Shown one piece after another: positions 5,645-64,000 of a stretch of 64,000 bases of DNA. Source of the DNA: Eledone cirrhosa (Eukaryota). Positions within the stretch are counted from its first letter, which is position 1; every line of letters begins with the position of its first letter. Where the stretch lies: positions 334,490,001-334,554,000 of the forward strand of contig OZ024740.1 in NCBI GenBank assembly GCA_964016885.1. The letters are read 5' to 3'. Made by a program: the position numbers and the translations under genes. The notes beneath the pieces are model-generated. The model did not search any database and was not told where the DNA came from. It worked only from the letters and a program-made list of their open reading frames with translations.

Positions 5645-5686
<42 letters not shown>

Positions 5687-5688
5687 TG

Positions 5689-5739
5689 AGATTCTACAGG
5701 ACTAGAACTGTTTCATTCATTAGAAATCATCAGGAATCT
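5689..5739 (-). ncRNA. Type I hammerhead ribozyme in PLE-A 3' pseudo-LTR
   Basis: Reverse complement reads AGATTC-CTGATGA-TTTCTAATGAAT-GAAA-CAG ttctagtc CTG-TA-GAATCT; stem I AGATTC/GAATCT, stem III ACAG/CTGT, GUA site. Confidence 0.85.
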
Positions 5740-6229
5740 GGGTATCAAAAAATAAATATGGTATTTATAGGTCTCTACAAGTGGTAGGAGAGGGTGGGGA
5801 GTGGGATGGGTGCAGGTCATTGGTTGATAGAAAAGGGAATTCATTAAAAGCTAATTCTACAAAGCTATAGTTTATTTTTATTTATTTATATTTTTAGAGT
5901 AACAAGGGCAGACAGAATTCTATAAACAGGTTCCGGATGGCATACCATTCCTTGTCATTAAGTTTCTCTTAAGCTAACAGATGTCTATAAAATCAGTGGG
6001 GGGTCAGTCATGGTCGATAGAATTAAAGAAAAGAGAGATTCTTTAAAAGCTAAAATCATTAAGGTTCTACTAAGTGACAAAGGTCTAGAGAATTCTGCAG
6101 ACAGATTCAAAATACTGAGTGCATATCTTACTATTATCTTCGAACTTCTCTTAAACTAATCAACTATATGCCAAAAATCAACAGACACATTCACAAAAAA
6201 AACCACAAAAAAACACATACTCACTCACA

Positions 6230-9050
<2,821 letters not shown>

Positions 9051-9216
9051 CTCAATAAATATACGCATATACGCAGGCACATAAAGACACCTCTACAGGC
9101 AGAAAATGTAGATACGAAAGAGGTACTCACATAACCATAGTGGCCGTATTTCAGGTTGAGGAGGGGTGGGGGTAGGGTGGGGAGGAGGTATAGGGGCCAA
9201 TAGGGGGAGGTCGTTA

Positions 9217-11358
9217 TTAGCCATCAGGCTTTAACACTGGCTTAAAGTGTTTGAAAGTTGCAAAGTTCTTGTGCATGCAGTTCAGGCAGTGTTCAGAGAG
9301 TTTGTTCAGTAGCGGGCCCTTGGCGAATAAAATTTCGTAGCTCTCTGAAATACAAAGGTCGCAGCCCTTGTGTCCTCCGTTGTAAGAGCGCGCTTTTTGG
9401 AGTATTTTCCAATTAAGCGTGAAGGGGGTGGAGTTCCTTTTGAGGTCCCAAACGTAGGAGGCGAGTGTTGTCTGATTTGATTTATCCGGTCTTCTGAAGG
9501 AGTGGGTATGGGCATACCAACGGGTCATAAAGTTGTTGGAGGTCATGCCGATGTAAGTTTTTTTGCAATCCTCGGTGCCTGAGATGACATCGCATTTGTA
9601 TACGATGTCATTTGTGAGGCATTTGTTTTCAAGTGGGCATGCTTCCTTATTTAGGCAATTACATAGAGCCCCAGTCCGGGGATTGGTTTCGGAGGTGGTT
9701 GGCTTATTTAGTTTAGAATTGTGGTTGGCTATATTCCTAGCTAGGTTAGGTGTGGTGGAGTAAGACAGTCTTATAGTGTTCTTATTAAAGATGGTGTAGT
9801 ACCTATGTTGTATGGGGAAGTGTAATTTCAGTAAAGTGAAGAAAATCCTAGCTATCGGAGTAGATACCTCTCTATTGAAGGGAGGGTTGTACCAGCTAAT
9901 CTGCCTATGTCTATTCCTCCTCTGCAATCTTGCGGTGGTTTCTAGGTAAGTTATCTTATCTTTAAATCCGCTACGGGCTAGGGCGTCATTGTAGTAGGAG
10001 GCAGATGCATTAAAAATATCTTTGTTGGCGGAGAGGCCAGATATTCTAATAGAGACGCTTTTTACTAGGTTATCAGTGATGTTTTGGGGGTGGTTTGAAT
10101 TAACATTAATATATTTAAGGGACTCGTTAGGTTTGTGGTACGGGTAATAGAGGGAAGTATCTAGGTCGAGAGTGACATCTAAGAAGTTGGCCCTAGTCAA
10201 ATTAGAATCTATAGTTATACTAAATCCTAGATTAGAGAAGAAAGAGCTTAAGTTTTTCCGAAACCCATCGGTGGTTCTGGGGCTAACCTTATGCAGGGCG
10301 AAGAGGCCGTCGTCTCGGTATAAACCTCCCGTTAGGCCGGTAAAGAGGTTCTTCAGGTTATGTAGGATGTACAGGCCCACAAGGTCGCTAATTTCAGCCG
10401 AGTCACTCGCCCCCATGCTAACGTCAAATGGGGTCTGAGATTTCTTGTTGATCCAGTAAGATCCATCGTGGTATAGAAAGGTCTTACGAGCGTGGAGGAT
10501 AATAACTTGCTCAGCATCGGTAATGGTGGTAAAATTCCTGGCAAAGTTAATTGCGTCCTTCAGGAGGGGCTCCGAGATAGGGGCATAGTAGTTTTCTATG
10601 TCGAGTTGCAGGAAGCGAGTGTGGTGTTTATCGGGTAATTCTTGGAACCATGATATTGCTTCAGATGTTCTACTCCAGAGTGGAAGTGGTGAGGCTGCCC
10701 GCAATGATGGTAGAACTCTATCCAGGATCTTCTTACTGATAGAGCCGATGTCAGAACGAGTGGGGTTGATAAGTCTGACTGATGGTTTGTTGAGGAAATT
10801 TCCCTTATGGTCCTTCAGGGTAAAGTGCGGGGTCTTTACCCTTAAAGGTTCGGTTCGGTCATGTAATTTAAGGGACTTGGCGATTTCTTTTCCGGCCGCG
10901 TTTGTCTCAGTCAGTGCCCTCTCTATTACCTTTTTGTAGGTGGTCGTGATGGTATTTTTTGCCAGCTTATTGTAGGTCTGTGGGTCTACCTCATAAACGT
11001 TTTTGGTTTTATCGGAGGAGACATAAAGATTAGGGGATTTTTTTATATTCCGTAATTCGGCATTTAAGTAGGCCTGGAATGGTGTGGTGGCTCTACGGAA
11101 TTTAATATCCTTGATCGTCTTGAAGAGGTCTTCTTCAAATGGTTGGAGTAGGCTGTTGGTGGGTGGTGTCTTATTCGTTTTCAAGCCGAACTTCTCATCA
11201 TTGGTAGATGCTACATCAGGGTTGTCGAGGAAGAAGGCCCTCCATCTAATTCGCTTGATGAACTCGTCGGTACGTCTGATGAGTGTTTTTAAGTATAGTT
11301 TCCTTGGAGGGATAGGGATGTTCTTCAAGGAAATATCAAGGTCGAGTTTGGTCAGCAT
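9217..11358 (-). CDS. Penelope-like RT + C-terminal GIY-YIG endonuclease (713 aa from first ATG; open frame extends to 11454)
   Basis: RT motifs [36 protein letters not shown]; [10 protein letters not shown] linker; endonuclease IVYKC...TYIGMT...TRWYAH...CDLCISE...LLNK...CMH; uninterrupted frame. Confidence 0.93.
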
Positions 11359-11488
11359 GGTTTCTTGATGATGGTTATAAGGGGCACAGAGAGTGCTAAA
11401 ATGTACGTTATTCCGGGTTGAATCGGAGGTAACCACAGTAAGTAAGGTACTCAATACATAGCAGAGTATAAAAGTTTTAATATAGATG

Positions 11489-11539
11489 AGATTCTACAGG
11501 ACTAGAACTGTTTCATTCATTAGAAATCATCAGGAATCT
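11489..11539 (-). ncRNA. Hammerhead ribozyme in PLE-A 5' pseudo-LTR
   Basis: Same sequence as 5689-5739; lies ~130 nt upstream of the ATG. Confidence 0.85.
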
Positions 11540-12130
11540 GGGTATCAAAAAATAAATATGGTATTTATAGGTCTCTACAAGTGGTAGGAGAGGGTGGGGA
11601 GTGGGATGGGTGCAGGTCATTGGTTGATAGAAAAGGGAATTCATTAAAAGCTAATTCTACAAAGCTATAGTTTATTTTTATTTATTTATATTTTTAGAGT
11701 AACAAGGGCAGACAGAATTCTATAAACAGGTTCCGGATGGCATACCATTCCTTGTCATTAAGTTTCTCTTAAGCTAACAGATGTCTATAAAATCAGTGGG
11801 GGGTCAGTCATGGTCGATAGAATTAAAGAAAAGGGAGATTCTTTAAAAGCTAAAATCATTAAGGTTCTACTAAGTGACAAAGGTCTAGAGAATTCTGCAG
11901 ACAGATTCAAAATACTGAGTGCATATCTTACTATTATCTTCGAACTTCTCTTAAACTAATCAACTATATGCCAAAAATCAACAGACACATTCACAAAAAA
12001 AAACACAAAAAAACACATACTCACTCACACACTTACGCGCAACCATAAACACACACACAAACACATATACACACATAAAAACACACACACATATATAAAA
12101 ATATATTCATGTACACACACATACATACAC

Positions 12131-13108
<978 letters not shown>

Positions 13109-13334
13109 TAACGACCTCCCCCTATTGGCCCCTATACCTCCTCCCCACCCTACCCCCACCCCTCCTCAACCTGAAATACGGCCACTATGGTTATATGTGT
13201 ACCTCTTTCGTATCTACATTTTCTGCCTGTAGAGGTGTCTTTATGTGCCTGCGTATATGCGTATATTTATTGAGTACCTATTTATTTGTATGTGTATATA
13301 TTTGTTTGTATGTGTGTATATGTATGTGTGTGTG

Positions 13335-13369
<35 letters not shown>

Positions 13370-13553
13370 GTTTGTGTGTATATGTGTTTTATGTGTGTAT
13401 ATTTATGTATGTATATGTATGTATATATGTGTATATATATGTATATATATATATATATGTGTATATATGTGTATGTATGTATGTATGTATGTATGTGTAT
13501 GTATGTATGTATGTTTATGTATGTATGTGTGTATGTATATGTATGTGTATGTG

Positions 13554-13612
<59 letters not shown>

Positions 13613-13617
13613 GTATG

Positions 13618-13682
<65 letters not shown>

Positions 13683-13698
13683 GTATGTATGTGTGTGC

Positions 13699-13758
<60 letters not shown>

Positions 13759-13801
13759 ATATATATATATATATAGTTGTGTGGGCAGGTGTGTATATAT
13801 G

Positions 13802-13833
<32 letters not shown>

Positions 13834-13841
13834 TGTATTTG

Positions 13842-13904
<63 letters not shown>

Positions 13905-13941
13905 GTATATATATATATATGTGTGTGTGTGTATGTGTGTA

Positions 13942-13972
<31 letters not shown>

Positions 13973-14019
13973 GTGTATGTCTGTGTATATGTATGTGTGT
14001 ATATATGTGTATGTGTGTG

Positions 14020-14119
<100 letters not shown>

Positions 14120-14185
14120 CGTGAGAGAGAGAGTGTGTATATATACTTGTGTGTGTGTGTGTGTATGTGTGTATGCGCGGGTGTG

Positions 14186-14278
<93 letters not shown>

Positions 14279-14371
14279 GTGTGTGTATATATGCGTTATA
14301 TGTCTGTGTATATATATATGTGTATATTTATGTATAGGTCTGTGTATGTATGTGTATGTTTGTATATGTAT

Positions 14372-14439
<68 letters not shown>

Positions 14440-14466
14440 ATAGATATTTATACATATGCATGTGTA

Positions 14467-14498
<32 letters not shown>

Positions 14499-14530
14499 TG
14501 TGTGCGTGTATATATATGTGTGTGTATTTG

Positions 14531-14569
<39 letters not shown>

Positions 14570-14778
14570 ATGTATGTATGTGTATATATGTGTGTGTGTA
14601 TGTGTGTGTATATGTGTATATATAATATGTATATGTGTGTGTAAATATGTGTATGAATATGTGTATATATGTATATATATGTGTATATATGTATATATGT
14701 ATGTACATACGTGTATATATGTGTGTATATATATGTTTATATGTATGTATGTGTATAGGTATGTTTGTATGTGTGTTT

Positions 14779-14831
<53 letters not shown>

Positions 14832-14851
14832 TGTATATATATGTATATATG

Positions 14852-14882
<31 letters not shown>

Positions 14883-15043
14883 GTGTGTGTGTATGTATGT
14901 ATATGTGTGTATATTTTTATATATATGTATATATTTGTGTGTATGTATATATATATGTATACATATATATATGTGTATGTGTGTGTATGTATGTGTGTAT
15001 ATATATATATATGTATATGTGTGGGTGTGTGTATATATGTGTG

Positions 15044-15112
<69 letters not shown>

Positions 15113-15213
15113 ATATGTGTATATATATGTGTATATTTGTATATATATATATATATATGTATGTATGGTGCTTTTTCCTTTTATATATGTGTATATGTGT
15201 GTATGCGTGTGTA

Positions 15214-15302
<89 letters not shown>

Positions 15303-15548
15303 ATGTATGTGTGTGTGTGTGTTTGTATGTGTATATATTTGTTTGTGTGTGTATATATATATATATATATATGTGTGTATGTGTATGTATGTATATATGT
15401 ATGTGGTTATATATATGAATATGTATATATATATATATATATGTATATGTGTATATATATGTGTGTGTATGTGTGTGTATATGTATATATATGTGATTGT
15501 ATGGGTTTTTTATATATATATATATATATATGTGTGTGTGCATGTATG

Positions 15549-15589
<41 letters not shown>

Positions 15590-15651
15590 GTATATATATA
15601 TATATATATACGTATGTGTGTGTATATATGTATGTGTATGTATGTATGTGT

Positions 15652-15725
<74 letters not shown>

Positions 15726-15849
15726 ATATGTGTCTCTGTATGTGTATGTATATATGTCTATATGTATACACATGTATATTTGTGTTTGTATGTATGCGTG
15801 TGAGTGTATTTATTTGTGTATATATGTGTGTGTATATATGTGTATATAC

Positions 15850-15909
<60 letters not shown>

Positions 15910-16500
15910 GTGTATGTATGTGTGTGTACATGAATATATTTTTATATATGTGTGTGTGTTTTTATGTGTGTATATGTGTTTGTATGTGTGTTTATGGTTG
16001 CGCGTAAGTGTGTGAGTGAGTATGTGTTTTTTTGTGTTTTTTTTTGTGAATGTGTCTGTTGATTTTTGGCATATAGTTGATTAGTTTAAGAGAAGTTCGA
16101 AGATAATAGTAAGATATGCACTCAGTATTTTGAATCTGTCTGCAGAATTCTCTAGACCTTTGTCACTTAGTAGAACCTTAATGATTTTAGCTTTTAAAGA
16201 ATCTCCCTTTTCTTTAATTCTATCGACCATGACTAACCCCCCACTGATTTTATAGACATCTGTTAGCTTAAGAGAAACTTAATGACAAGGAATGGTATGC
16301 CATCCGGAACCTGTTTATAGAATTCTGTCTGCCCTTGTTACTCTAAAAATATAAATAAATAAAAATAAACTATAGCTTTGTAGAATTAGCTTTTAATGAA
16401 TTCCCTTTTCTATCAACCAATGACCTGCACCCATCCCACTCCCCACCCTCTCCTACCACTTGTAGAGACCTATAAATACCATATTTATTTTTTGATACTC

Positions 16501-16551
16501 AGATTCCTGATGATTTCTAATGAATGAAACAGTTCTAGTCCTGTAGAATCT
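16501..16551 (+). ncRNA. Hammerhead ribozyme in the inverted PLE-A pseudo-LTR
   Basis: AGATTC CTGATGA TTTCTAATGAAT GAAA CAGTTCTAGTCCTG TA GAATCT. Confidence 0.85.
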
Positions 16552-16633
16552 CATCTATATTAAAACTTTTATACTCTGCTATGTATTGAGTACCTTACTT
16601 ACTGTGGTTACCTCCGATTCAACCCGGAATAAC

Positions 16634-16689
<56 letters not shown>

Positions 16690-22343: not shown

Positions 22344-22498
22344 CATATATATATTATATATTATATATATATGTTATATTATATATATATGTATTATATA
22401 TTATATATATATTATATATTATATAAATTTATGTTATATATATATATTATATATATACTATATATATATTATATATTATATATATATATATATATTAT

Positions 22499-23430
22499 AT
22501 AAAGAATTAGTATATCTACCAACATATATATACAGATGCATACCTATGCTAGCAAATATATAGGTTTTGTTTTAGTAAATTGTGGTTCAATGCAAGGGGA
22601 TGCAGAGCAATTATATGAAAGACGTAAAATAAGGAAATTATAAAAATTAAATTGCTAAAATTTCACTCCAACTAATTAGTTTCTGAAAGGGAATAAACAT
22701 GTTTTCCAAATGGAAAGCATGGAAAAGCCTTTCGTCATCAGGGAGTCTGTTCTCAGCTAAGTTCCCAGGCGATGCGTGGACACAGAGAACATATACAAAA
22801 ATAATTCAGTGGATGGAAAAAAGCAAGCGTGGTCTAAATTTCAAGACATTGAAAAAATCACTGCCTACTTGGTCGGTGGCAAATTCAAAAGAATCAATCA
22901 CGTGACATTGAGGTTAATCGGTGATGAGTGGGGTGTTTAAAAGACAATAGCCGAGCCATTACTATGAACTATAGTAGCAGTTTTGGCAAATTTTTGCTCA
23001 ACGAAATAATTTGGAGATAATTATAAAGAATTAGTATATCTACCAACATATATATACAGATGCATACCTATGCTAGCAAATATATAGGTTTTGTCTTAGT
23101 AACGTTGTGGTTCAATGCAAGGGGATGCAGAACAATTATATGAAAGACGTAAAATAAGAAAATTATAAAAATTAACTTACTTACTAAAATTTCACTCCAA
23201 CTAATTAGTTTCTGAAAGGGAATAAACATGGTTTCCAAATTGAAAGCATGGAAAAGCCTTTCGTCATCAGGAAGTCTGTTCTCAGCTAAGTTCCCAGGCG
23301 ATGCGTGGACACGGAACTTATACAAAAATAATTCAGTGGATGGAAAAAACAATCACGTGACATCGAGGTTAATCAGTGGAGTGAAATTTGAGTAAGTTAA
23401 TTTTTATAATTTTCTTATTTTACGTCTTTC

Positions 23431-30859: not shown

Positions 30860-32824
30860 ATCTCCCCCCCCCCGAACCCTTTGCTCTCACCCTTCGAGAA
30901 TGACCTCTTCCAACTGGTCAAGACCCTTAACTTGAAACCCAGACACAACCGATTCCTACAAAAACCCCGTAGCAACTTAACAGAGTATGATAACACCAAT
31001 GACATCATGGTGCATTCGGATAAAACTGGGAACCTATAGTTTGTCAACCCCGACAAATACCACACACTGATCAGGAGCAGCCTAAACTCCACCTATAAAA
31101 AGGCTAACCACTCATGCATCGAGGACATTAATCGAGATGGACAACAAATTACCTCCAGCCTCGGGGTCGCTGACCGCACCGAACCCCTAGACCCACGGAC
31201 ACCATATTTCACACTGAAGGACCACAAATCCGATTTCGACCGTAAACCATCTATCAGGCTTATAAACCCAACGAAGTCCGACATAGGGAGAATCAGCAAA
31301 AAAATCCTAGACCGCGTGATACCAAAAGTCAAGCAACACGCCCGACTTAGCCTATGGATCAACACCCAGGAAGTTATGTCATGGTTCAGCAATATGGAGG
31401 ATAAACGAGACACTAAATTTATCCAGTTCGACATAGAGAGCTACTATGCTTCAATCACCTTACCGCTACTTACTGCCGCCTTGGACTTCGCCGAAGCACT
31501 TGTGCCCATCACCGACCAGGAAAGAAAAATCATCCTCCACTCCAGGAAGACAGTCTTACTCTTTGACAACTCCAAATGGATAAAAAGAGCTCCCGACTCA
31601 CCCTTCGACGTCAGCATGGGCGCGACGGATTCGGCGGAGGTCACAGACCTTATAGGATTATTCCTTATAGCCAAACTCACCGATATGTTTTCTGCTTTCG
31701 GTGGTGGATTGTACCGTGATGATGGGCTGCTTACCCTTAAAGGGTACAACCCCAGTAGTACAGATCGGGTCCGTAAACAATTAATCAGCCTATTCCGCGA
31801 CTGGGGATTTAAAATAACCCTACAAACGTCCCTGACCCAAGTTAATTTCCTGGACGTTACCCTTGATTTTAATAATGACCTGTACTACCCGTACAGGAAA
31901 CCCAATAACAACCTGCACTACATCCACCGCCGATCTAACCATCCTAGGAACATCACCAACAACCTGGTCAAAAACATCTCCCTCCGCATATCCCGTTTGT
32001 CAGCTAATGAGAATATATTCAATGAACATGCGCCTTACTACAACCAGGCCCTCAAGCGGAGTGGTTTCCGGGAGGAAATATCCTACTGTCCAGCTCCCAT
32101 TAGCGGAACTAGCAGGCGACACCACCGCTCACGCAATGTAACATTGTTCAATCCTCCCCACAACGCCGAGGTGACAACTCCCATCGCGAAAATTTTCTTT
32201 AGGCTCATTGAAAAACACTTCCCACCACAACACCACTACCACAACATAATTAACAAAAATACCATCAAACTCTCTTACAGCACTACACCTAACTTCGCAC
32301 AAAAGATCGTCTCCTCCAACAACAAAAAACTCAACCCCGATGGAAGAAACAACCTAAATAGCAGTGGAGAGCCGACCAGGAGGTGCAATTGTCCTGATAG
32401 ATCCAGTTTCCCCCTCGACAACAGATGCAGAGACCGTAATGTGATCTACCAGTGCAACGTGAGCACGGACACCTCCAACAAAGCTTATATAGAATTAACC
32501 TCATGTGACTTCAAGACCCGGCTATACCAACACAGACATACCTTCCGAAACCCAGCCCGACGTCACGCCACTACACTTTCGGGCCACATATGGGACCTCA
32601 AGGACAACAACATCAACTATGATCTCACTTGGAAATTACTGTCCAGAGCCAACTCTTACAAGGGAGGACGCCGTCCGTGCAATTTATGCTCGGAGGAAAC
32701 TTTACAAATGCTGTTTTCGACGGACCAACTCCTAAACAAGAAAGATGAACTGGTTACTGCATGTAAACACCGATTACGTAGGACTTACCACACCCTCAAA
32801 CCCCATAATGACCAAGGGAGGTAG
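30860..32824 (+). pseudogene. Penelope-like element B: RT + GIY-YIG, same type as A, N-terminus truncated and disrupted
   Basis: ORF 31316-32824 has FIQFDIESYY, MGATDSAEVTDL, LYRDDGL, CNCPD, CNLCSEE, CKH; upstream PFENDLF/SDKTGNL homology is interrupted by a TAG at ~31037; YIG is altered to YIE. Confidence 0.88.
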
Positions 32825-33386: not shown

Positions 33387-37958
<4,572 letters not shown>

Positions 37959-37979
37959 TATATATATATAAATATATAT

Positions 37980-38931
37980 TTAATTTCGTTTCGTTATTTG
38001 TTTTTATCGTCTCCGTTGAACCGGTACGTACTCACACTCTATGCAAATTAGTCTGCCCACTACTAATTTTCATAGAAAAAGCATATAACGATATGTGCTT
38101 TTACGATTCTCCAGAAAGGCCGGTAGATAGGTAAATATTGCTGATGAGTTGTAACAACAACGAAACTAGTTCAATATTCCTTGTCTGGCTTTCTGGAGAA
38201 TAGAGGAAAGGTGTTTCCTCAAAAACCAGTATGACTCTAAAAACCGGTTTGTCTGTGTGTTTACATACAGAATAGCTGGACACTCACGGTAAAGTGACCA
38301 GTGAAAAACTTGGTACATCTACATATGTATACGTGTGTGTATTCATATGCATACTAGTATTTCAGTATACATATGTGGATGTACATTTTTAACTTAATTG
38401 TTTAAGCGTCAGTCATACAAAAGTGAGTTACAAACGAAACGAAATTTAATTTCGTTTCGTTATTTGTTTTTATCGTCTCCGTTGAACCGGTACGTACTCA
38501 CACTCTATGCAAATTAGTCTGCCCACTACTAATTTTCATAGAAAAAGCATATAACGATAGGTGCTTTTACGATTCTCCAGAAAGGCCGGTAGATAGGTAA
38601 ATATTGCTGATGAGTTGTAACAACAACGAAACTAGTTCAATATTCCTTGTCTGGCTTTCTGGAAAATAGAGGAAAGGTGTTTCCTCAAAAACCAGTATGA
38701 CTCTAAAAACCGGTTTGTCTGTGTGTTTACATACAGAATAGCTGGACACTCACGGTAAAGTGACCAGTGAAAAACTTGGTACATCTACATATGTATACGT
38801 GTGTGTATTCATATGCATACTAGTATTTCAGTATACATATGTGGATGTACATTTTTAACTTAATTGTTTAAGCGTCAGTCATACAAAAGTGAGTTACAAA
38901 CGAAACGAAATTTAATTAGGTTTCGTTATTT

Positions 38932-38935
<4 letters not shown>
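37980..38935 (+). mobile_element. Retrozyme-like tandem dimer, 466 bp period, one minimal HHR per unit
   Basis: 37980-38445 repeats at 38446-38911; flanked by (TA)n; no coding signal. Confidence 0.85.
38134..38178 (+). ncRNA. Minimal type I hammerhead (second copy 38600-38644)
   Basis: AATATTG-CTGATGA-GTTG taacaa CAAC-GAAA-CTAG-TT-CAATATT; palindromic ACTAGT stem III. Confidence 0.9.
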
Positions 38936-38982
<47 letters not shown>

Positions 38983-39315
38983 TATATGTATATATATGTA
39001 TCGTATTGTATATTGTATTACATTATATATATGTTATTATGTTACGATAATTTTACCGTCATTATACTGTTTCTATTGCATAATGTAATTTTAACTGTTC
39101 CCTTACAGGTGTGTTTTTATATATGTATATGTGGTAGCACTTTGGTGTGTGTGGGCAGATGTGCATGCGTGCAGGTGTATGCATGCGGAAACACGTATGC
39201 GTATGCATGTGTAGATGTATGTATATCGGCATATGCAGGGTATGTGTATGTATATGTGTGGATGGGCGTACGCATGTTAAGTTGTCCCTTTTCTTTCTTT
39301 TGTGTATATATATAA

Positions 39316-43114: not shown

Positions 43115-45800
43115 ATTTCTTTATTTACCATAAAGGCATAAAAAGAAGGGACAAATACAAAGGGGGAGTTTACAGGAAATCGAGTAAAAAGGGTATAAAT
43201 TGAAAATAATCGAAAACAACCTCAAAAGGGAGGAGACGTGATGGGGGTTGCACCCCCCCCCCCCGAAAAAGTGTGCAATCCTTTGCCCGGGGAGCACATG
43301 GAGAAGGTGCTCCCCTCTCCTTCACTTCTTTACCTACAGGATGGTATACAGAGAAGGCCCATTTACACGAGCCATTCTCGCCACTATCACCCACCCTTCA
43401 TAAAACTGCCTGTGGCCAAGCACCTCTCTCTCCATTCTTATCCTTCTTCCGAGGTGATATCGGAAGAAGTAGACCAGACTATGGCCTCAGACCTTTCAAT
43501 CGTGTCCACCAAACAACCTCTTTCAACATGGCTATTAAGCATAGAAAAACCGCCTTTGCTTCCTTTGTGAAGAGGGGAGGCGGCTTGATTGTCATCACGG
43601 ACACGGTGGTCAATCAAATCGGCGCCACCCGCGATAGCAGTCGTTCGGCGTAGCCCCACAGATCAGCCACGCCCGGACATTGTACCAATGCGTGCGCAAC
43701 GGTTTCTTCGTGACGCACGCATCTAGGGCAAATCTTTTTCGAGGGATCCCTGCCCGGCCGCCCGTGTCTGTAGAGCCTCTCTCGAACGGGTAGAGCCCCC
43801 CCCCCCCCCCCTCCGGTAGCACTGCCAGGCTAGTGACTTCTGGAATTTGTCCATTGTCCCGGGCCGAAAGTCCGACCGAACAGGCTGGCCAGTTCGTCCT
43901 CTTCCATGTCCAGCGACTCTCCAAGGGTGTCATCGCCCCTGCTAGCCACCAGCCCTCTATAGAATGATGAGGTGGATTCTCCACCGATGGCCGGGCCCGC
44001 TTGCCAGAGAGCCCTGAGCGCCTGGGCACACTCAGTGTGCCAGTCTCCCAGTTTTTCCGGATCTTTGCTTGACCCAGGACTGCAGTTCGGTGAGCGAGAC
44101 GAGTCTCGGAAAGGCTCGTTTCACCAACGGAGCCCACACCGGTTGACCAGTGAGGAATACATGTAGGTGCCGTAGCCTTAATGCGTGCCTACGCATCATC
44201 AACCACGGCATCCCCAGCCCTCCTTTCGAAGGTTGTTGGCAGCAGATGGATCTTCTCACCATAGGAGGGCGCTTCTTCCAAAGAAATTGGAAGAGCATGC
44301 GTTCCATGGTGGTGAGTGTTTCCTTAGAGCAAGGCACGACAGTCAGGCGGTAGTAAGTGACGGACGCTATGTAAATGTTCGCCACCTCCGCCCGACCTTT
44401 TAGGGACAGCTTACACTTGGCCCATTTCTGGGTTAGTGCAAACACCTTGTTCGTAACCTCGTCCCAGTTCTTTTCCACCTGGAGGTCCGGTCCAAACCAG
44501 ACCCCAAGCAACTTCACCTGGCCCTCCGTCCAGTGTGCGACGACACCGTCAGGAGGCATCGGTCTGCCTCTCCACGTTCGGAGCTGCAGCCCGATGGATT
44601 TTTCCCGGTTCAGTTTCGCTCCTGACAACCTTTCGTATTCCTCCAGTAAGGTACTGATCGCCTCGATCTCCGAATCGGTCGATACCATTACTGTTACGTC
44701 ATCGGCGTAGGCCGACACCGCTTTGCTCAATCCTGGTTCCAGGGGGATACCCTGCAACAACTCCAACTTCCTCAGTAAAGGCTCGAGAGTCAATACGTAC
44801 AGAAGAGAGGAGAGAAGGCACCCCTGTCGAATGGATCGTGCGATTTCGAACGGCTTCGAAAGGTAGCCGTTCACCTTGATCCTAGAACAGATCTGGTTGC
44901 TATGTAAGGCAGTGATCCAGCCTCTGAAAACAGGACCGAACCCAGCCGCCGCTAGCACCGCATCCAGGTAACCATGGTCGACCCTATCGAAGGCCTTAGA
45001 CTGATCCAAGTTGATCAGGGCCCCACCGAAGCCGGGTTTGTTGCCAACTCTCTCTATGATGTATCGCATGAGGTGGAGGTTATCGTGAATGGACCTGGAT
45101 GGGATAGCACATGTCTGCGCATCTCCCACCAGGCCACCCACGACAAGCGCCAACCTCTTTGCTAACACCTTGGCCAAAATCTTTAACTCTGTGTTTAGCA
45201 GGGTTTTGGGCCGAAAATTATTTATACTATCCCCCTTGTTCTCGTCCTTCCTCACCAGCGAGACTACGCCCTTGGCTACAGAACAAGGAATTCTCCCGTT
45301 CTGCTGCCAATTGCAGTAGACCGCTTCGAGGAGTTCGGAGAAGAAGACCGGCATTGCTAAATAAAGTTCGTAAGGTATATCATCGAGACCTGGAGATTTG
45401 CGTCTGCTGCATTGGCTCAGCGCCTCCCCGATCTCATCAGCCGAGATTGGTCCCTCGCAGGACTCTGCCTCTTCGCTCGAGAGACGCGGCAGGCCGTCGA
45501 GGTATGGACCGAAATCCACGTCCCCGCCCGGAACCTCGCCTCCCCCGAATAATCGGGCAAAGTGCCTTTGAAAGACCTCGCACATCTGCTTAGGCTTCCG
45601 GATCACCCGTCCATTCTCGTCTTACAAAGACCGGATGGTGGATCGATTTCCACTCTTAGCTTCTGTCACGCGGGCCCAGCCAACGGCTTTGGCCCCCTCA
45701 TTACCTAGAGCACGTATTCTACTTCGAATGACGCAGCCTTCGTGCTTTGCATCGAAAAACTGGTTCAAGGCCGTCCTCGATGCCAGCACTCTGGCCACAT
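43115..45800 (-). mobile_element. 5'-truncated Tx1/L1-clade LINE (RT + CCHC), 3' end in (TA)n
   Basis: RT ORF 44032-45606; downstream CPRC..EETVAHALVQCP zinc knuckle (~43680-43730); AATAAA just before the (TA)n. Confidence 0.85.
44032..45606 (-). pseudogene. L1/Tx1-type reverse transcriptase domain (partial ORF2)
   Basis: KSPGLD, NFRPKTLLNTELKILAK, LDQSKAFDRVDH, RQGCLLS, AYADDV, GGLG; lacks the APE N-terminus; frameshifted C-terminus. Confidence 0.88.
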
Positions 45801-49172: not shown

Positions 49173-50058
49173 CACACAGATATATCCACAGTATGTTGTT
49201 GTGTCCATACACAGAGATACATGAATACATATATATATATATATTTGGATTTTACCAACTTTTCAACCATCCTCTTACGTAATCACCTATATAACTCAAC
49301 CACACACACGCCCCAAACAATTTTTTTCTCCACACGCCACCTACACCCACAACACGCTTAAACCCCACACACACGTGCTTTCCACCACATATTTACACCC
49401 TCGGCCTCCTGATTCCTCCCCCCTCTATCCACACACGCACAGACACTCCGACCCCCCCACACACACACACACACCTCTTCCTGAACAACCCCGTTCTTCC
49501 CCCAACCCTTACTTTCACATACACACACACACACACACACACACGTACACCTACACACACCCACCACCTTCAGCCCTCCCCGCTCGGACACCCCGTCTCC
49601 CTCTCCCCACTCCACCCGCCACCACCCCTACACACCCCACACCCTTCCACCACCTGTTTTAACCCCCTTTAATTTCAGTTTATTTTGATCATGCTTTTTT
49701 ATTTCAATTTATTTCATTCCTTGTATTTTGATCATGTTTATTTTTATTTTTATTTTTATTTTTTTCTTTCGCACCGTTTCCTTTCGCTATATGTCTCTCC
49801 ACCACTCCCCTACACACCCTTTGAACTCTGTTCCCACACACTTCTCACCTGAGGAAGGGCTTATGCCCGAAACGTCGTCCCCCACCAGAGCGTGAAATTA
49901 ATAAACATTCGTTGTACTGCCCCTCTGTTTTGTCCCTGTTCAAATTTTTCCATTATATATATAAATATATATATACATATAAATATATATATATATATAT
50001 ACATACATATACATACATACATACATACATATATATACATATATACACATATACAAAT

Positions 50059-50116
<58 letters not shown>

Positions 50117-54349: not shown

Positions 54350-54399
<50 letters not shown>

Positions 54400-54419
54400 A
54401 TGTATAATTATATATATAT

Positions 54420-54481
<62 letters not shown>

Positions 54482-54567
54482 GAGAGAATTGGGAGTGTGT
54501 AACACTCCACTTATCAAATAGGCAGTATATGGTTAGCTCAATGTCAGAGGACAGAGCCGTAATACAA

Positions 54568-56293
54568 TTAACAACAAAGAGCGCTTAGAACATAGGTATA
54601 TCTTTAATTGCTAACAGTGTTTCGTCCACACTAGAAGTGGGACTCTTCAGAGCATAAAGAGTAAATACAAAGTATACAAGCATTGACAAAGCCAAAACAG
54701 AAGAATATATGTGGGGATACCATAAGTTGGGAGGAGTTTAAGGAGTAAAGTAAAAGGAGCAAAATAAGAGGAGTAAAATAAGAGGAGTAAAATAAAATAA
54801 ACATAAAAATAAGAATAAGATTAAGAATAAAAAAAGAATAAGATTAAGAATAAAAATAATAATAAAAATAATAATACTATTAATAATAAAAATAAAAATA
54901 AAAATAAAAATAAAAATAAAAATAAAAATAAAAATAAAAAATAAAAATAAAAATAAAAATAAAAATATGAAAAATGAAAAATGAAAAATGAAAAATGAAA
55001 AATAATAAAAAATAATAAAAAATAATAGATAATAAAAAATAAAAAATAAAAAATAAAAAATAAAAAATAAAAAATAAAAAATAAAAAATAAAAAATAAAT
55101 AAAAAATAAAAAATAAAAAATAAAAAATAAAAAATAAAAAATAAAAAATAAAAAATAAAAAATAAAAAATAAAAAATAAAAAATAAAAAATAAAAAATAA
55201 AAAATAAAAAATAAAAAATAAAAAATAAAAAATAAAAAATAAAAAATAAAAAATAAAAAATAAAAAATAAAAAATAAAAAATAAAAAATAAAAAAAAAAA
55301 AATAAAAAAAAAATAAAAAATAAAAAAAAAAAAATAAAAAATAAAAAAAAAAAAAAAAATAAAAAATAAAAAAAAAAATAAAAAATAAAAAATAAAAAAA
55401 AAAAAATAAAAAATAAAAAATAAAAAATAAAAAATAAAAAATAAAAAATAAAAAATAAAAAATAAAAAATAAAAAATAAAAAATAAAAAATAAAAAATAA
55501 AAAATAAAAAATAAAAAATAAAAAATAAAAAATTAATAAATAAAAAATAAATAATAAAAAAATAAGAGATGTTATCACTCACAGTTGGGCAGGGTTACGT
55601 TAACATAGCTACATACAATTATATGCATAAGCATGAGCACCCGCATGCACCTACACACAAGCACCCGTATGCAACACATACAGTATACACTAATACAAAT
55701 AACATATCATATACGGATGGGCACAAGTTAAGAGGTAGAGATAGATAAAAAATAGATAAGAGGTAGATAAAAAATAGATAAGAGGTAGATAAAAATAGAT
55801 AAGAAGTAGATAAAAAAATAGATAAAAAATAAATAAAAATTAGATAAGAAATAGATAAAAAATAGATTAAAAATAGCTAAAAAATAGCTAAAAAATAGAT
55901 TAAAAAATAGATAAGAAATAGATAAAAATAGCTAAAAAATCGATGAAAGCTAAATAGTAAAAAAATAATAAAAAATTATAAATAAATAATAAATACTAAA
56001 AAATAAAAAATATGATAAAATAAAATAAAATAAAATAAAATAAAATAAAATAAAGTAAAATAAAATAAAATAATATAATAAAAGGTAAATTAAAATATAA
56101 GAACAACAATACACCAAAGAAAATGGAGTAAAATATACACAATAAAGGAAGGTGTGTGTAAAGATAAGACTGGCAAATGCATAAGCTATCAAGCTATGTT
56201 CAACAAAGGATAAACGTATAACACATAAAATACACAAAGATATATATACAAAAATATATATAAAAAATATATATAAAAGAGACGCATATATAA

Positions 56294-56342
<49 letters not shown>

Positions 56343-58858
56343 TATATACATATATCAGTCCAAGTAATGTATATTTATAAAGATGTAACTGGGGGTAAAA
56401 AGATGTAATAAGGGTAATCAAGATGGTAATTATTAGGGCATGTAAAATAATATTATTATAGAAATCCTAAGGTGACACTAGTGTTGACTCATGGTGATAT
56501 ATGGAATATATCAGGACACGAACGCCTTAGGTGTTGCAGTTAGCCACAGTTCAACAATAGAGTGTTCAAATGAGATTTTCCGTGAACAGATGCTATGTCC
56601 GCGATAGATTGAGTTGGCCATTACAATGCAATGGAAACATCCCAGGTTGGACAGTCTCTGAAGTTCACACTCCACAGGTGTGCATTCATAGAGTTGAGCG
56701 GTTGGGCAATCCGAAAAAGTTTACACTACAAAGTTCAATACACATACGTGCATTCACAGAGTTGAGCACTCAGGCAAGAATTAACTGGTCAACAAGGTGT
56801 ATCCATATCACAAGCAGGAGCATATGCTGGGAAGGTTGCAGGCAAATTCACATACAGCAGCACGAACATCAAGATATTTGCCAGTCTTATCTTTACCCAC
56901 ACCTTCCTTTATGGTGTATATTTTACTCCATTTTCTTTGGTGTATTGTTGTTCTTATATTTTAATTTACCTTTTATTATATTATTTTATTTTATTTTACT
57001 TTATTTTATTTTATTTTATTTTATTTTATTTTATCATATTTTTTATTTTTTAGTATTTATTATTTATTATTTATTTTTTATTATTTTTTTACTATTTATC
57101 TTTCATCGATTTTTTAGCTATTTTTATCTATTTCTTATCTATTTTTTATCTATTTTTTTTAGCTATTTTAGCTATTTTTAATCTATTTTTTTATCTATTT
57201 CTTATCTAATTTTTATTTATTTTTTATCTATTTTTTATCTATTTTTTATCTACTTCTTATCTATTTTTTATCTACCTCTTATCTATTTTTTATCTATCTC
57301 TACCTCTTAACTTGTGCCCATCCGTATATGATGTTATTTGTATTAGTGTATACTGTATGTGTTGCATACGGGTGCTTGTGTGTAGGTGCATGCGGGTGCT
57401 CATGCTTATGCATATAATTGTATGTAGCTATATGTTAACGTAACCCTGCCCAACTGTGAGTGATAACATCTCTTATTTTTTATTATTTATTTTTTATTTA
57501 TTATTTATTTTTTATTTTTTATTTTTTATTTTTTATTTTTTATTTTTTATTTTTTATTTTTTATTTTTTATTTTTTATTTTTTATTTTATTTTTTATTTT
57601 TTATTTTTTATTTTTTATTTTTTTATTTTTTATTTTTTATTTTTTATTTTTATTTTTTTTTTATTTTTTTTTTATTTTTTTTTTTATTTTTTTTTTTATT
57701 TTTTTATTTTTTTTTTATTATTTATTTTTTTTATTTATTATTTATTTATTATCTATTATTTTTTATTATTTTTTATTTATTATTTTTCATTTTTCATTTT
57801 TCATTTTAAAAAATAAAAAATAAAAAATAAAAAATAAAAAATAAAAAATAAAAAATAAAAAATAAAAAATAAAAAATAAAAAATAAAAAATAAAAAATAA
57901 AAAATAAAAAATAAAAAATAAAAAATAAAAAATAAAAAATAAAAAATAAAAAATAAAAAATAAAAAATAAAAAATAAAAAATAAAAAATAAAAAATAAAA
58001 AATAAAAAATAAAAAATAAAAAATAAAAAATAAAAAATAAAAAATAAAAAATAAAAAATAAAAAATAAAAAATAAAAAATAAAAAATTAATAAATAAAAA
58101 ATAAATAATAAAAAAATAAGAGATGTTATCACTCACAGTTGGGCAGGGTTACGTTAACATAGCTACATACAATTATATGCATAAGCATGAGCACCCGCAT
58201 GCACCTACACACAAGCACCCGTATGCAACACATACAGTATACACTAATACAAATAACATATCATATACGGATGGGCACAAGTTAAGAGGTAGAGATAGAT
58301 AAAAAATAGATAAGAGGTAGATAAAAAATAGATAAGAGGTAGATAAAAATAGATAAGAAGTAGATAAAAAATAGATAAAAAATAGATAAAAAATAAATAA
58401 AAATTAGATAAGAAATAGATAAAAAAATAGATTAAAAATAGCTAAAAAATAGCTAAAAAATAGATTAAAAAATAGATAAGAAATAGATAAAAATAGCTAA
58501 AAAATCGATGAAAGCTAAATAGTAAAAAAATAATAAAAAATTATAAATAAATAATAAATACTAAAAAATAAAAAATATGATAAAATAAAATAAAATAAAA
58601 TAAAATAAAATAAAATAAAGTAAAATAAAATAAAATAATATAATAAAAGGTAAATTAAAATATAAGAACAACAATACACCAAAGAAAATGGAGTAAAATA
58701 TACACAATAAAGGAAGGTGTGTGTAAAGATAAGACTGGCAAATGCATAAGCTATCAAGCTATGTTCAACAAAGGATAAACGTATAACACATAAAATACAC
58801 AAAGATATATATACAAAAATATATATAAAAAATATATATAAAAGAGACGCATATATAA

Positions 58859-58913
<55 letters not shown>

Positions 58914-60810
58914 TATATACATATATCAGTCCAAGTAATGTATATTTATAAAGATGTAACTGGGGGTAAAAAGATGTAATAAGGGTAATCAAGATGGTAA
59001 TTATTAGGGCATGTAAAATAATATTATTATAGAAATCCTAAGGTGACACTAGTGTTGACTCATGGTGATATATGGAATATATCAGGACACGAACGCCTTA
59101 GGTGTTGCAGTTAGCCACAGTTCAACAATAGAGTGTTCAAATGAGATTTTCCGTGAACAGATGATATGTCCGCGATAGATTGAGTTGGCCATTACAATGC
59201 AATGGAAACATCCCAGGTTGGACAGTCTCTGAAGTTCACACTCCACAGGTGTGCATTCATAGAGTTGAGCGGTTGGGCAATCCGAAAAAGTTTACACTAC
59301 AAAGTTCAATACACATACGTGCATTCACAGAGTTGAGCACTCAGGCAAGAATTAACTGGTCAACAAGGTGTATCCATATCACAAGCAGGAGCATATGCTG
59401 GGAAGGTTGCAGGCAAATTCACATACAGCAGCACGAACATCAAGATATTTGCCAGTCTTATCTTTACCCACACCTTCCTTTATGGTGTATATTTTACTCC
59501 ATTTTCTTTGGTGTATTGTTGTTCTTATATTTTAATTTACCTTTTATTATATTATTTTATTTTATTTTACTTTATTTTATTTTATTTTATTTTATTTTAT
59601 TTTATCATATTTTTTATTTTTTAGTATTTATTATTTATTATTTATTTTTTATTATTTTTTTACTATTTATCTTTCATCGATTTTTTAGCTATTTTTATCT
59701 ATTTCTTATCTATTTTTTATCTATTTTTTTAGCTATTTTAGCTATTTTGAATCTATTTTTTTATCTATTTCTTATCTAATTTTTATTTATTTTTTATCTA
59801 TTTTTTATCTATTTTTTATCTACTTCTTATCTATTTTTTATCTACCTCTTATCTATTTTTTATCTATCTCTACCTCTTAACTTGTGCCCATCCGTATATG
59901 ATGTTATTTGTATTAGTGTATACTGTATGTGTTGCATACGGGTGCTTGTGTGTAGGTGCATGCGGGTGCTCATGCTTATGCATATAATTGTATGTAGCTA
60001 TATGTTAACGTAACCCTGCCCAACTGTGAGTGATAACATCTCTTATTTTTTATTATTTATTTTTTATTTATTATTTATTTTTTATTTTTTATTTTTTATT
60101 TTTTATTTTTTATTTTTTATTTTTTATTTTTTATTTTTTATTTTTTATTTTTTATTTTTTATTTTTTATTTTTTATTTTTTATTTTTTATTTTTTATTTT
60201 TTATTTTTTATTTTTTATTTTTTATTTTTTATTTTTTATTTTTTATTTTTTATTTTTTATTTTTTATTTTTTATTTTTTATTTTTTATTTTTATTTTTTT
60301 TTTATTTTTTTTTTTATTTATTTTTTTTATTTATTTTTTTTTTTTTTTATTTTTTTTTTATTATTTTTTTTTTTTTATTTATTATTTATTTATTATCTAT
60401 TATTTTTTATTATTTTTTATTTATTATTTTTCATTTTTCATTTTTCATTTTTCATATTTTTATTTTTATTTTTATTTTTATCTTTATTATTAATAGTATT
60501 ATTATTTTTATTATTATTTTTATTCTTAATCTTATTCTTTTTTTATTCTTAATCTTATTCTTATTTTTATGTTTATTTTATTTTACTCCTCTTATTTTAC
60601 TCCTCTTATTTTGCTCCTTTTACTTTACTCCTTAAACTCCTCCCAACTTATGGTATCCCCACATATATTCTTCTGTTTTGGCTTTGTCAATTCTTGTATA
60701 CTTTGTATTTACTCTTTATGCTCTGAAGAGTCCCACTTCTAGTGTGGACGAAACACTGTTAGCAATTAAAGATATACCTATGTTCTAAGCGCTCTTTGTT
60801 GTTAATTGTA
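54568..60810. mobile_element. ~6.2 kb nested palindrome/tandem element with terminal HHRs and internal (AAAAAAT)n arrays
   Basis: Outer arms 54568-~55000 / ~60400-60810 are inverted; the inner arm-spacer-arm block is duplicated with a ~2570 bp period. Confidence 0.8.
60719..60764 (+). ncRNA. Type I hammerhead (mirror copy 54609-54654, minus)
   Basis: TGCT-CTGAAGA-GTCCCAC ttcta GTGTGGAC-GAAA-CACTG-TT-AGCA. Confidence 0.82.
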
Positions 60811-60909
60811 TATATATATATATATATATAGTACTTATATATATATAGTACATATATATATATATATATAAATAAAAATAGAGAAATTAATGTGAGCAAG
60901 AAGCCAAAA

Positions 60910-60973
<64 letters not shown>

Positions 60974-62559: not shown

Positions 62560-63355
62560 AACGCAGTAGGCAGTGATTTTTTCAATGGCTTGGAACATAG
62601 TTCACGCTTTGCTTTTTTCCATCCACTGAATTAGTTTTGTATAAGTTCCCTGTGTCCACGCATTGCCTGGAAACTTAGCTGAGAATAGACTTCCCTGATG
62701 ACGAAAGGCTTCTCCGTACGTTTCTTCGGAAACTATGTATATTCCCTTTCAGAAACTAATTAGTTGGAGTGAAATTTTAGTAAGTAAGTTAATTTTTATA
62801 ATTTTCTTATTTTACGTCTTTCATATTATTGTTCTGCATCCCCATGCATTGAACCACAAAGTTACTAAGACAAAACCTATATATTTGCTAGCATAGGTAT
62901 GCATCTGTATATATATGTTAGTAGATATACTAATTCTTTATAATTATCTCCAAATTATTTTGTCGAACCAAAATTGGCCAAAACTCCTATTATAGTTCAT
63001 AGTAAGGGTTCGGCTGCTGTCTTCTTAACAAACCACTCCTCAATGATTAAACTTGATGTCACGTGATTGATTCTTTTGAATTTGCCACCGACGTAGTAGG
63101 CAGTGATTTTTTCAATGGCTTGGAACTTAGTCCACGCTTTGCTTTTTTCCATCCACTGAATTAGTTTTGTATAAGTTCCCTGTGTCCACGCATTGCCTGG
63201 AAACTTAGCTGAGAGTAGACTTACCTGATGAAGAAAAGCTTCTCCGTACGTTTCTTCGGAAACTATGTTTATTCCCTTTCAGAAACTAATTATCTGGAGT
63301 GAAATTTTAGTAAGTAAGTTAATTTTTATAATTTTCTTATTTTACGTTTTTCATA
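62560..63355 (+). mobile_element. Tandem ~530 bp HHR units (family of 22499-23432); HHRs at 62689-62770 and 63219-63300 (decayed)
   Basis: CTGATGA-CGAAAGG...CCTTTCA-GAAA-CTAATTAG-TT-GGAGT; repeat offset ~530. Confidence 0.82.
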
Positions 63356-63886
63356 TATATATATATATATATATATAGATAATTTAATATATCAACTAAC
63401 ATAGGCGCACAGATGTACGTCCATGCCAGCAAATACACAGGTTATGTCATAGTACCTAGGTGGTTCAATGCAGGAGGGTGCAGAACAATAATATAAAAGA
63501 CGTAAAATAATAAAATATTATTTTTTTTTTTAATTTAAAAAAACTTTTTTACTTACTTACTTAAATTTTCACTCCAACTAATTAGTTTCTGCAATGGGAT
63601 AAAGACAGTTACATAATCCAACTGTCGAGAATTCATTGCGTCATCAGGGAGTCTATTCTCAACTGAGCCTCCAGGCAATGCGCGGACACTGGCGGCTCAT
63701 ATAAAAATAATAATTCGGTAGAAAGAACAGCTAGGCGAGGACTGGATTCTATGTACTTTGACTGGAAGCAGTGAGAATTTCAGTACATAGAATCCAGTCC
63801 TCGCCTAGCTGTTCTTTCTACCGAATTATTATTTTTATATGAGCCGCCAGTGTCCGCGCATTGCCTGGAGGCTCAGCTGAGAATAG

Positions 63887-63968
63887 ACTCCCTGATGACG
63901 CAATGAATTCTCGACAGTTGGATTATGTAACTGTCTTTATCCCATTGCAGAAACTAATTAGTTGGAGT
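63887..63968 (+). ncRNA. Hammerhead subfamily with covaried stem II, in a fold-back centred near 63772 (mirror 63571-63652)
   Basis: ACTCC-CTGATGA-CGCAATG...GACAGTT...AACTGTC...CATTGCA-GAAA-CTAATTAG-TT-GGAGT. Confidence 0.88.
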
Positions 63969-64000
63969 GAAAATTTAAGTAAGTAAGTAAAAAATGTTTT

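Follow-up and report, generated by a model that had tools for sequence, protein, structure and literature searches.

The question raised by this locus is how a short tandem repeat that carries hammerhead ribozymes and encodes no protein comes to be copied and inserted between TA runs of the Eledone cirrhosa genome. On balance, we think it probable that the repeat is a retrozyme with two fixed ends, and that the enzyme of a Penelope-like element (PLE) uses both ends of a DNA break to start copying a 466-nt RNA that is predicted to be circular. The parts of this proposal differ in strength: a two-ended insertion of the PLE type is very likely and, given such an insertion, a circular template is fairly likely. 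Throughout, "the window" denotes the whole stretch of 64,000 nucleotides that was analysed.

Structure of the window copy

Repeat finding in the 64-kb window located the tandem repeat (period 466, 2.1 copies, 98%), the features of which are collected in Table 1. Its two units show only 2 mismatches (38094/38560 and 38198/38664) and TA runs lie on either side, as had been described in an earlier reading made from the letters of the window alone (the sequence-only reading), which saw two near-identical non-coding hammerhead units inserted in (TA)n and a small hairpin at the unit junction, here found to comprise 13 bp. The longest stop-free stretch of the 466-bp unit is 57/60 codons, its GC content is 36%, and it is strongly self-paired, with a circular MFE of -156.8 kcal/mol and z=-11 for the + strand against 60 dinucleotide shuffles (z=-8 for the minus-strand fold, against 60 shuffles). 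A unit that is non-coding, tandem, low in GC and strongly self-paired, with ends adjoining TA runs, fits the non-LTR retrozyme that had been proposed.

Table 1. Features of the window copy, with positions counted from the first nucleotide of the window.
Feature	Position	Strand	Remark
Whole insertion	37978..38939	+	2.06 units, one-armed; 5'-truncated at junction hairpin; 3' end is fixed site A
Unit 1, 466 bp	37982..38447	+	unit position 1 is 37982
Unit 2	38448..38913	+	unit positions 113 and 217 unlike unit 1
(TA)n target, left	37844..37979	.	repeat annotation
(TA)n target, right	38935..39001	.	repeat annotation
13-bp junction hairpin in tail	38433-38445/38449-38461 (38433..38461)	+	pairing of window sequence
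Long AT-rich hairpin, unit 1	38313..38384	+	second copy at 38779-38850
Octamer ATGCAAAT	38041..38048	+	second copy 38507-38514; also present in sister family
Tail, end B to end A of next unit	38398..38473	+	homologous stretch in sister families
Type I hammerhead 1	38123..38194	+	predicted cut after 38171 (GUU)
Type I hammerhead 2	38589..38660	+	predicted cut after 38637 (GUU)
Predicted self-cleaved 466-nt monomer/circle	38172..38637	+	66% paired in MFE fold; prediction only

The octamer ATGCAAAT could possibly act as a promoter element; newt satellite 2 has a promoter of the snRNA type. That it is an essential promoter is doubtful, as three A>G changes in the octamer have not kept one subfamily from reaching 7 loci and up to 26 units. 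This is a very young 468-bp subfamily (L042, L083-L089; 7 loci, 69 units), in which the three changes are clustered and destroy the octamer.

The hammerhead ribozyme

Both units contain the motif AATATTG-CTGATGA-GTTG-TAACAA-CAAC-GAAA-CTAG-TT-CAATATT, with core starts at 38141 and 38607, and the descriptor for this hammerhead had 0 matches in 50,000 shuffles of the unit. The predicted cleavage triplet is GUU, not GUC, and GUU is cleaved more slowly than GUC. Helix I is extended, helix II has 4 bp and a 6-nt loop, and helix III consists of 1 bp, an A-U pair, capped by a tetraloop that is palindromic (A-CUAG-U; ACUAGU overall). According to predicted fold energies, the active form would be unfavourable in a monomer (+2.2 kcal/mol) and favourable in a one-site dimer (-11.6 kcal/mol). 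In the part of the preprint bioRxiv 10.64898/2026.07.22.740005 drawn on here, only 1 of 9 predicted Xenopus dimers was cleaved in vitro, which, like the slower triplet, counts against the mechanism proposed below.

While the Rfam search of the window gave no match at the gathering level, the model Hammerhead_HH9 aligned to both units with E=4.6e-8 and 38.6 bits, which is below its gathering score of 52. The alignment spans the full model length, including the 4-bp helix II and the extended helix I, which runs on through an internal loop (AGAUAG-GUAA...UCC-UUGUCU). Matches to miRNA and sRNA models were far under the cut-offs and reflect hairpins; they were rejected. The description of the ribozyme as a "perfect minimal" hammerhead has to be revised in the light of the HH9 alignment: as helix I is extended and has an internal loop, the ribozyme is of canonical type I and not minimal in the sense of the definition taken from PMC4209133, and the short helix I, ill-defined loop 1 and enlarged helix II by which minimal hammerheads are recognised do not describe the unit.

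An identical 45-nt hammerhead motif is present in 294 of 324 units from the family at large, among which a compensatory change in helix II (168/179) and a GUU>GUC variant are also seen. These two changes, the compensatory one and the GUC cut site, occur together as a haplotype in L098 and in the inner units of L089. A sister family of ~425 bp has its two ends at the homologous sites and retains both the palindrome at the cut site and GAAACTAGTT-C, though its helix I differs. Taken together, the covariation in helix II, the GUU>GUC variant and the cut site of the sister family would point to constraint on the ribozyme. Older ~425-bp sister retrozymes, with thousands of candidates, occur at L071-L082 and in the flanks of L022, L060 and L067, and have tail, octamer and GAAACTAGTT-C cut site in common with the 466-bp family; the tail is shared by further sister families as well.

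Insertions end at two fixed sites

An exact 37-nt core gave 4,961 matches in the genome as against 0 for a backwards-pattern control, and a DNA search of the genome with the unit returned 124 matches from the best 40 of 567 candidates; the full-length matches among those listed have 98-100% identity. The family is young, has ~5,000 copies and is present for the most part in mirror-image arrays, whose two ends are fixed. Its architecture was read from 77 distinct insertions that were placed on a concatemer ruler after removal of duplicate loci. The sources were the best-scoring loci of the DNA search, the loci containing the first 100 matches to the core on contig C1, and a further 16 loci found by subfamily patterns; this sample is skewed to ribozyme-containing copies and long arrays.

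In the sense of the ribozyme, the 3' ends of the arms coincide with one of two sites in 126 of 131 cases: site A at unit positions 19-28 (mostly 26), or site B at 413-425 (mostly 418 and 423), ~70 nt apart. A TA run adjoins 109 of these 126 fixed ends. Head-to-head arrays with two arms make up 51 of the 77 insertions, and 45 of the 51 combine one A end with one B end, with neither A+A nor B+B being found; in the other 6 one end is off-site, lying in an N gap in one, a few bases from the expected site in two, and elsewhere in three. The remaining insertions are 19 with A only, to which the window copy belongs, 5 with B only and 2 irregular ones, and several of the single-ended insertions keep a 10-25-nt remnant of the opposite end. 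The copy in the window thus represents, within a two-armed family of Penelope signature, a member that has one arm and is truncated at its 5' end. The tail runs from fixed end B (unit 417-423), which sits in a small CTTAA/TTAAG hairpin, to fixed end A (24-27 of the following unit), and we infer that it marks a pair of reverse-transcription start sites.

Target duplications were read at five informative sites that are not TA runs (they are unreadable within pure (TA)n) and measure 12-17 bp: 13, 12 and 12 bp in L017, L031 and L043, and 17 and 14 bp in L083 and L097. Of the 42 two-piece loci listed, 31 have an inversion junction at which the pieces overlap by 1-8 nt. The longest arm has 29.4 units, and the cut site is crossed twice or more by 48 of 126 arms. 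An excess of inner arm ends at unit positions 440-463 was discarded, since the palindromic hairpin affects the alignment there and accounts for part of it. Contigs of the independent run X1, which are of unrecorded kind, agree with the fixed sites, having loose ends in (TA)n at 38473 (12 contigs), 38870 (5) and 38399 (1).

Penelope-like elements in the window and the search for a partner

An inverted truncated copy together with a tail at one end is the signature of PLE insertions as given in sections of PMC8557442, and extracts of PMC11167929 describe a PLE protein that cuts and extends both strands from two internal RNA sites, which define the tail. The window itself holds an autonomous Hydra-type PLE (5680-16639) of this layout, with two opposed arms in (TA)n and ends ~75 nt apart. 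Its ORF (9217-11493, minus strand) is a 758-codon stop-free frame that looks intact, and the protein motifs RWR, DKT, CxCX5C and GIY-YIG match the Hydra list in section 11 of PMC8557442. Because its tail is unlike that of the retrozyme, we treat this element as a comparator and not as a proven partner. It also has hammerhead-like motifs at 5733 (-), 11533 (-) and 16507 (+) and a 2.6-kb TA-rich 3' region, and its arms are 97-98% alike at the ends. A second, diverged PLE frame of 594 codons (31040-32824, +), with its start upstream in another frame, has RT and GIY-YIG-like motifs and no Pfam match; Pfam matched neither of the two PLE ORFs, both of which were recognised by the motifs set out in PMC8557442.

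A search for a linked PLE ORF, which the sequence-only reading had suggested, gave a divided answer: Hydra-type PLEs of the same layout are present, but none was found that shares the retrozyme tail. In 696 kb of loci, tblastn with a PLE N-terminus and a two-sequence tail profile revealed no autonomous partner among the matches listed, and none of the matches to PLE proteins that occur in the first 70 loci falls within an arm. A genome-wide pattern of tail plus K(N/D)IP had 24 matches; judged by their 80-base starts, which are the tails of these non-coding families, no partner is among them.

Several other repeats of the window carry hammerhead-like motifs. A 2.18-kb tandem element (33400-37370 and 49244-50111; motifs at 33576 (-), 35754 (-) and 49849 (+)), all copies of which end at the same base before (TA)n, is likely to be another family of the PLE type. 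Tandem units of ~525-530 bp (22498-23349 and 62561-63991) have a larger hammerhead-like motif at 22741 (-), 23270 (-), 62695 (+) and 63225 (+) and are probably another retrozyme family. At 54359-60970, inverted and direct repeats are nested in a large structure with a period of ~2.57 kb; its hammerhead-like motifs lie at 54650 (-) and 60723 (+), and it includes long tracts of (AAAAATA)n. A 529-codon frame at 44032-45621 (-) matches RVT_1 with E=1.6e-25 and belongs to a different retroelement.

The rule of one A and one B end, the target duplications, the PLE of the same layout in the window and the haplotype shared by both arms (see below) together make an insertion of the Penelope type well supported.

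The template of the arrays

The two arms of an insertion are alike, with no more than 1 difference, in 38 of 42 cases, compared with 176 of 1,705 cross-locus pairs (10%), and the 71 loci with full coverage represent 35 haplotypes. Minority variants number 0, 1 and 3 in arrays of 20, 26 and 38 units, respectively. Over 17,970 sites, none of the minority variants was shared in register between arms as against 62 unshared, a comparison of low power if the source arrays are young, and the cut site has no indel or added base in 324 units. Uniform arrays, the lack of in-register sharing and a scarless cut site are what repeated copying round a monomeric circle would predict, and copying round one such circular monomer is likely the origin of the arrays.

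The same two-ended PLE insertion might, however, have used a linear template, namely a multimeric transcript of some existing array that had stayed uncut, with length and uniformity stemming from young source arrays and unequal crossing-over, and with the ribozyme a passenger or active in some other step. We consider this rather unlikely. In four tests of privateness, every array-fixed variant turned out to be a multi-locus subfamily marker (69, 288, 164 and 189 genome matches) with multi-unit sister arrays, so that there is often a homogeneous array of greater length that may have served as the source of a linear template; for this reason linear multimers are possible templates. Periodic minority variants (period 2 in L051, period 3 in arm B of L055, a spacing of 8 in L093-94) show either block duplication after insertion or multimeric templates, although some could be artefacts, and L096 has 2 adjacent variants shared in another register. 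Local amplification is favoured by the preprint (bioRxiv 10.64898/2026.07.22.740005), and the PLE ribozyme proved dispensable for insertion in vitro (PMC11167929), as far as the excerpts of these two sources go. Against a linear multimer stand the 0 of 62 minority variants shared in register and the covariation of helix II. Moreover, 35 haplotypes that are each fixed across two-armed arrays require repeated bottlenecks of one unit, and as many as 29 intact ribozymes in one transcript would have to leave it uncut.

It is improbable that covalent circles are dispensed with and that the reverse transcriptase, on reaching the 5' end of a linear monomer released by self-cleavage, instead jumps to a 3' end, be it of that molecule or of another. 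Such jumps are compatible with the haplotype switch in L089, which lies between unit positions 190 and 299 and may fall at the cut site, and with the 15 inner arm ends (of 131) that lie shortly downstream of this site, at 196-217, but the switch in L095 lies elsewhere (after 307, before 330) and the cut site is scarless. Jumps between molecules should also mix haplotypes, whereas the long arrays are uniform. Haplotype switches, which tell against copying from a single circle, occur within arms in L067, L089 and L095 and between arms in L038, where the two arms of a single insertion carry different haplotypes, which suggests that they were copied from two template molecules.

Heritable variants are A>G on the sense strand in 19 of 46 cases, as compared with 17 of 114 singletons (Fisher p=6e-4), and heritable A>G outnumber T>C by 19 to 6 (p=0.02), position 307 and its two variants being omitted from the A>G count as ambiguous in polarity. 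This excess would fit editing of a double-stranded RNA intermediate, to which a tolerance of G-U pairing could contribute; no ADAR neighbour preference was seen among the A>G variants.

That the repeats are orphan pseudo-LTRs, i.e. 5'-truncated ends of autonomous PLEs that expanded as satellite DNA and have no RNA cycle of their own, is very improbable. Truncation and inversion are common among PLE insertions (PMC8557442), and the preprint (bioRxiv 10.64898/2026.07.22.740005) relates retrozymes to pLTRs, with 24 of 57 Xenopus families matching known elements, according to the parts of both that were drawn on. Yet the arms of the 77 insertions repeat the complete unit and never enter an ORF, and no RT/GIY-YIG ORF lies between the repeats. 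The sequence-only reading had reserved the name pseudo-LTR for a unit that is always attached to an RT ORF; with its ends at two fixed sites, most of them next to a TA run, the unit is not always so attached. The non-coding tails found by the tail-plus-ORF pattern and the strand bias of heritable A>G changes also argue against this origin. Fold-back chimeras or collapsed repeats of the assembly can practically be dismissed: assembly is difficult where inverted repeats lie in (TA)n, and some periodic variants could be of this kind, but the arms stop at different fixed sites and differ in length, target duplications are present, and the same ends recur in contigs of an independent run.

Proposed mechanism and its implications

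Returning to the circular template that we favour, tandem copies would be transcribed from the + strand, and adjacent hammerheads in the transcript are predicted to pair via the ACUAGU palindrome and to cut at GUU. The monomers would then be ligated to circles, in which a lone ribozyme is predicted to be poorly active. A PLE protein with RT and GIY-YIG domains would nick (TA)n or AT-rich DNA with a stagger of 12-17 nt, whereupon one DNA end would prime at A and the other at B, ~70 nt off on the same RNA, leaving the footprint that is seen. Each RT would circle its template for anything from less than one turn to 29 turns, and the two cDNAs would be joined head to head via short microhomology, as the observed junctions suggest. 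Where one arm failed or stayed tiny, a one-armed array such as the window copy would result. A stricter version, by which each insertion is the print of a single ribozyme-made circle, copied simultaneously by two Penelope RTs, one per break end, for up to 29 turns, with edits of the circle becoming subfamilies, has about an even chance of being right.

The family provides sequence-level evidence on how retrozymes spread, namely a two-end rule that matches the two RT start sites of PLEs and one haplotype per insertion. Mobilisation by PLEs and reverse transcription on circular RNA have been proposed, not demonstrated (PMC7229834, Discussion; bioRxiv 10.64898/2026.07.22.740005, within the portions used). 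As the RNA signal can now be named (the 70-nt tail) and the window offers an intact-looking Hydra-type ORF, this step is testable in vitro. Our data suggest that the tail and the inverted copy of PLEs may themselves stem from two-ended priming, each DNA strand using its own start site. To build a concatemer of 13.7 kb out of units of 466 nt, the RT would have to be highly processive and strand-displacing.

Comparison with known systems

In twin priming of L1, both target strands prime on one RNA, and an inversion, a microhomology join and a target duplication result; the position of the second site varies, and there is no overlap between the arms. The double priming and the inversion at microhomology are similar in the Eledone family, but here both sites are fixed and each arm repeats the whole unit.

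The minimal hammerheads of PLE pseudo-LTRs, as treated in part of PMC4209133, are alike in type I topology and in the predicted need for a dimer to form helix III. More extensive is the likeness to EN+ PLEs, especially Hydra, in the sections of PMC8557442 and PMC11167929 that describe them: these, too, have partial tandems and a 5'-truncated copy in inverse orientation, carry a tail at only one of their ends, target (TA)n, and have a type I hammerhead and a stem-loop with two internal RT start sites. These elements differ in carrying an ORF and a tail of 30-40 nt, whereas the retrozyme has no ORF and a tail of ~70 nt, and both of its arms can be long concatemers of up to 29 units. The strict rule of one A and one B end, counted in the Eledone family, is a further difference from those accounts. 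At informative sites, the target ends overlap the ends of the retrozyme by a few bases, while the Anolis PLE is reported to start without homology.

Within the portions of the metazoan retrozyme literature covered here, we found no description of head-to-head arms, of two fixed ends or of one haplotype per insertion, and no two-armed, tail-defined retrozyme. Expression and cleavage have been demonstrated for known metazoan retrozymes, as reported in part of that literature, whereas both are predictions for the Eledone family, and its GUU cut site sets it apart. The unit of 466 nt exceeds the 170-400 nt given in PMC7229834 and is within the 51-972 bp of bioRxiv 10.64898/2026.07.22.740005. In other respects, and as far as the relevant parts of these two sources allow a comparison, metazoan non-LTR retrozymes are alike in non-coding tandems, a canonical type I hammerhead, low GC (<50%), a highly self-paired fold, target duplications of >4 bp, thousands of copies and PLEs in the same genome, and the axolotl/newt type has a similar helix III of one pair and a palindromic tetraloop. 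The element would thus appear to work like the metazoan non-LTR retrozymes and, by its testable features, to belong to them.
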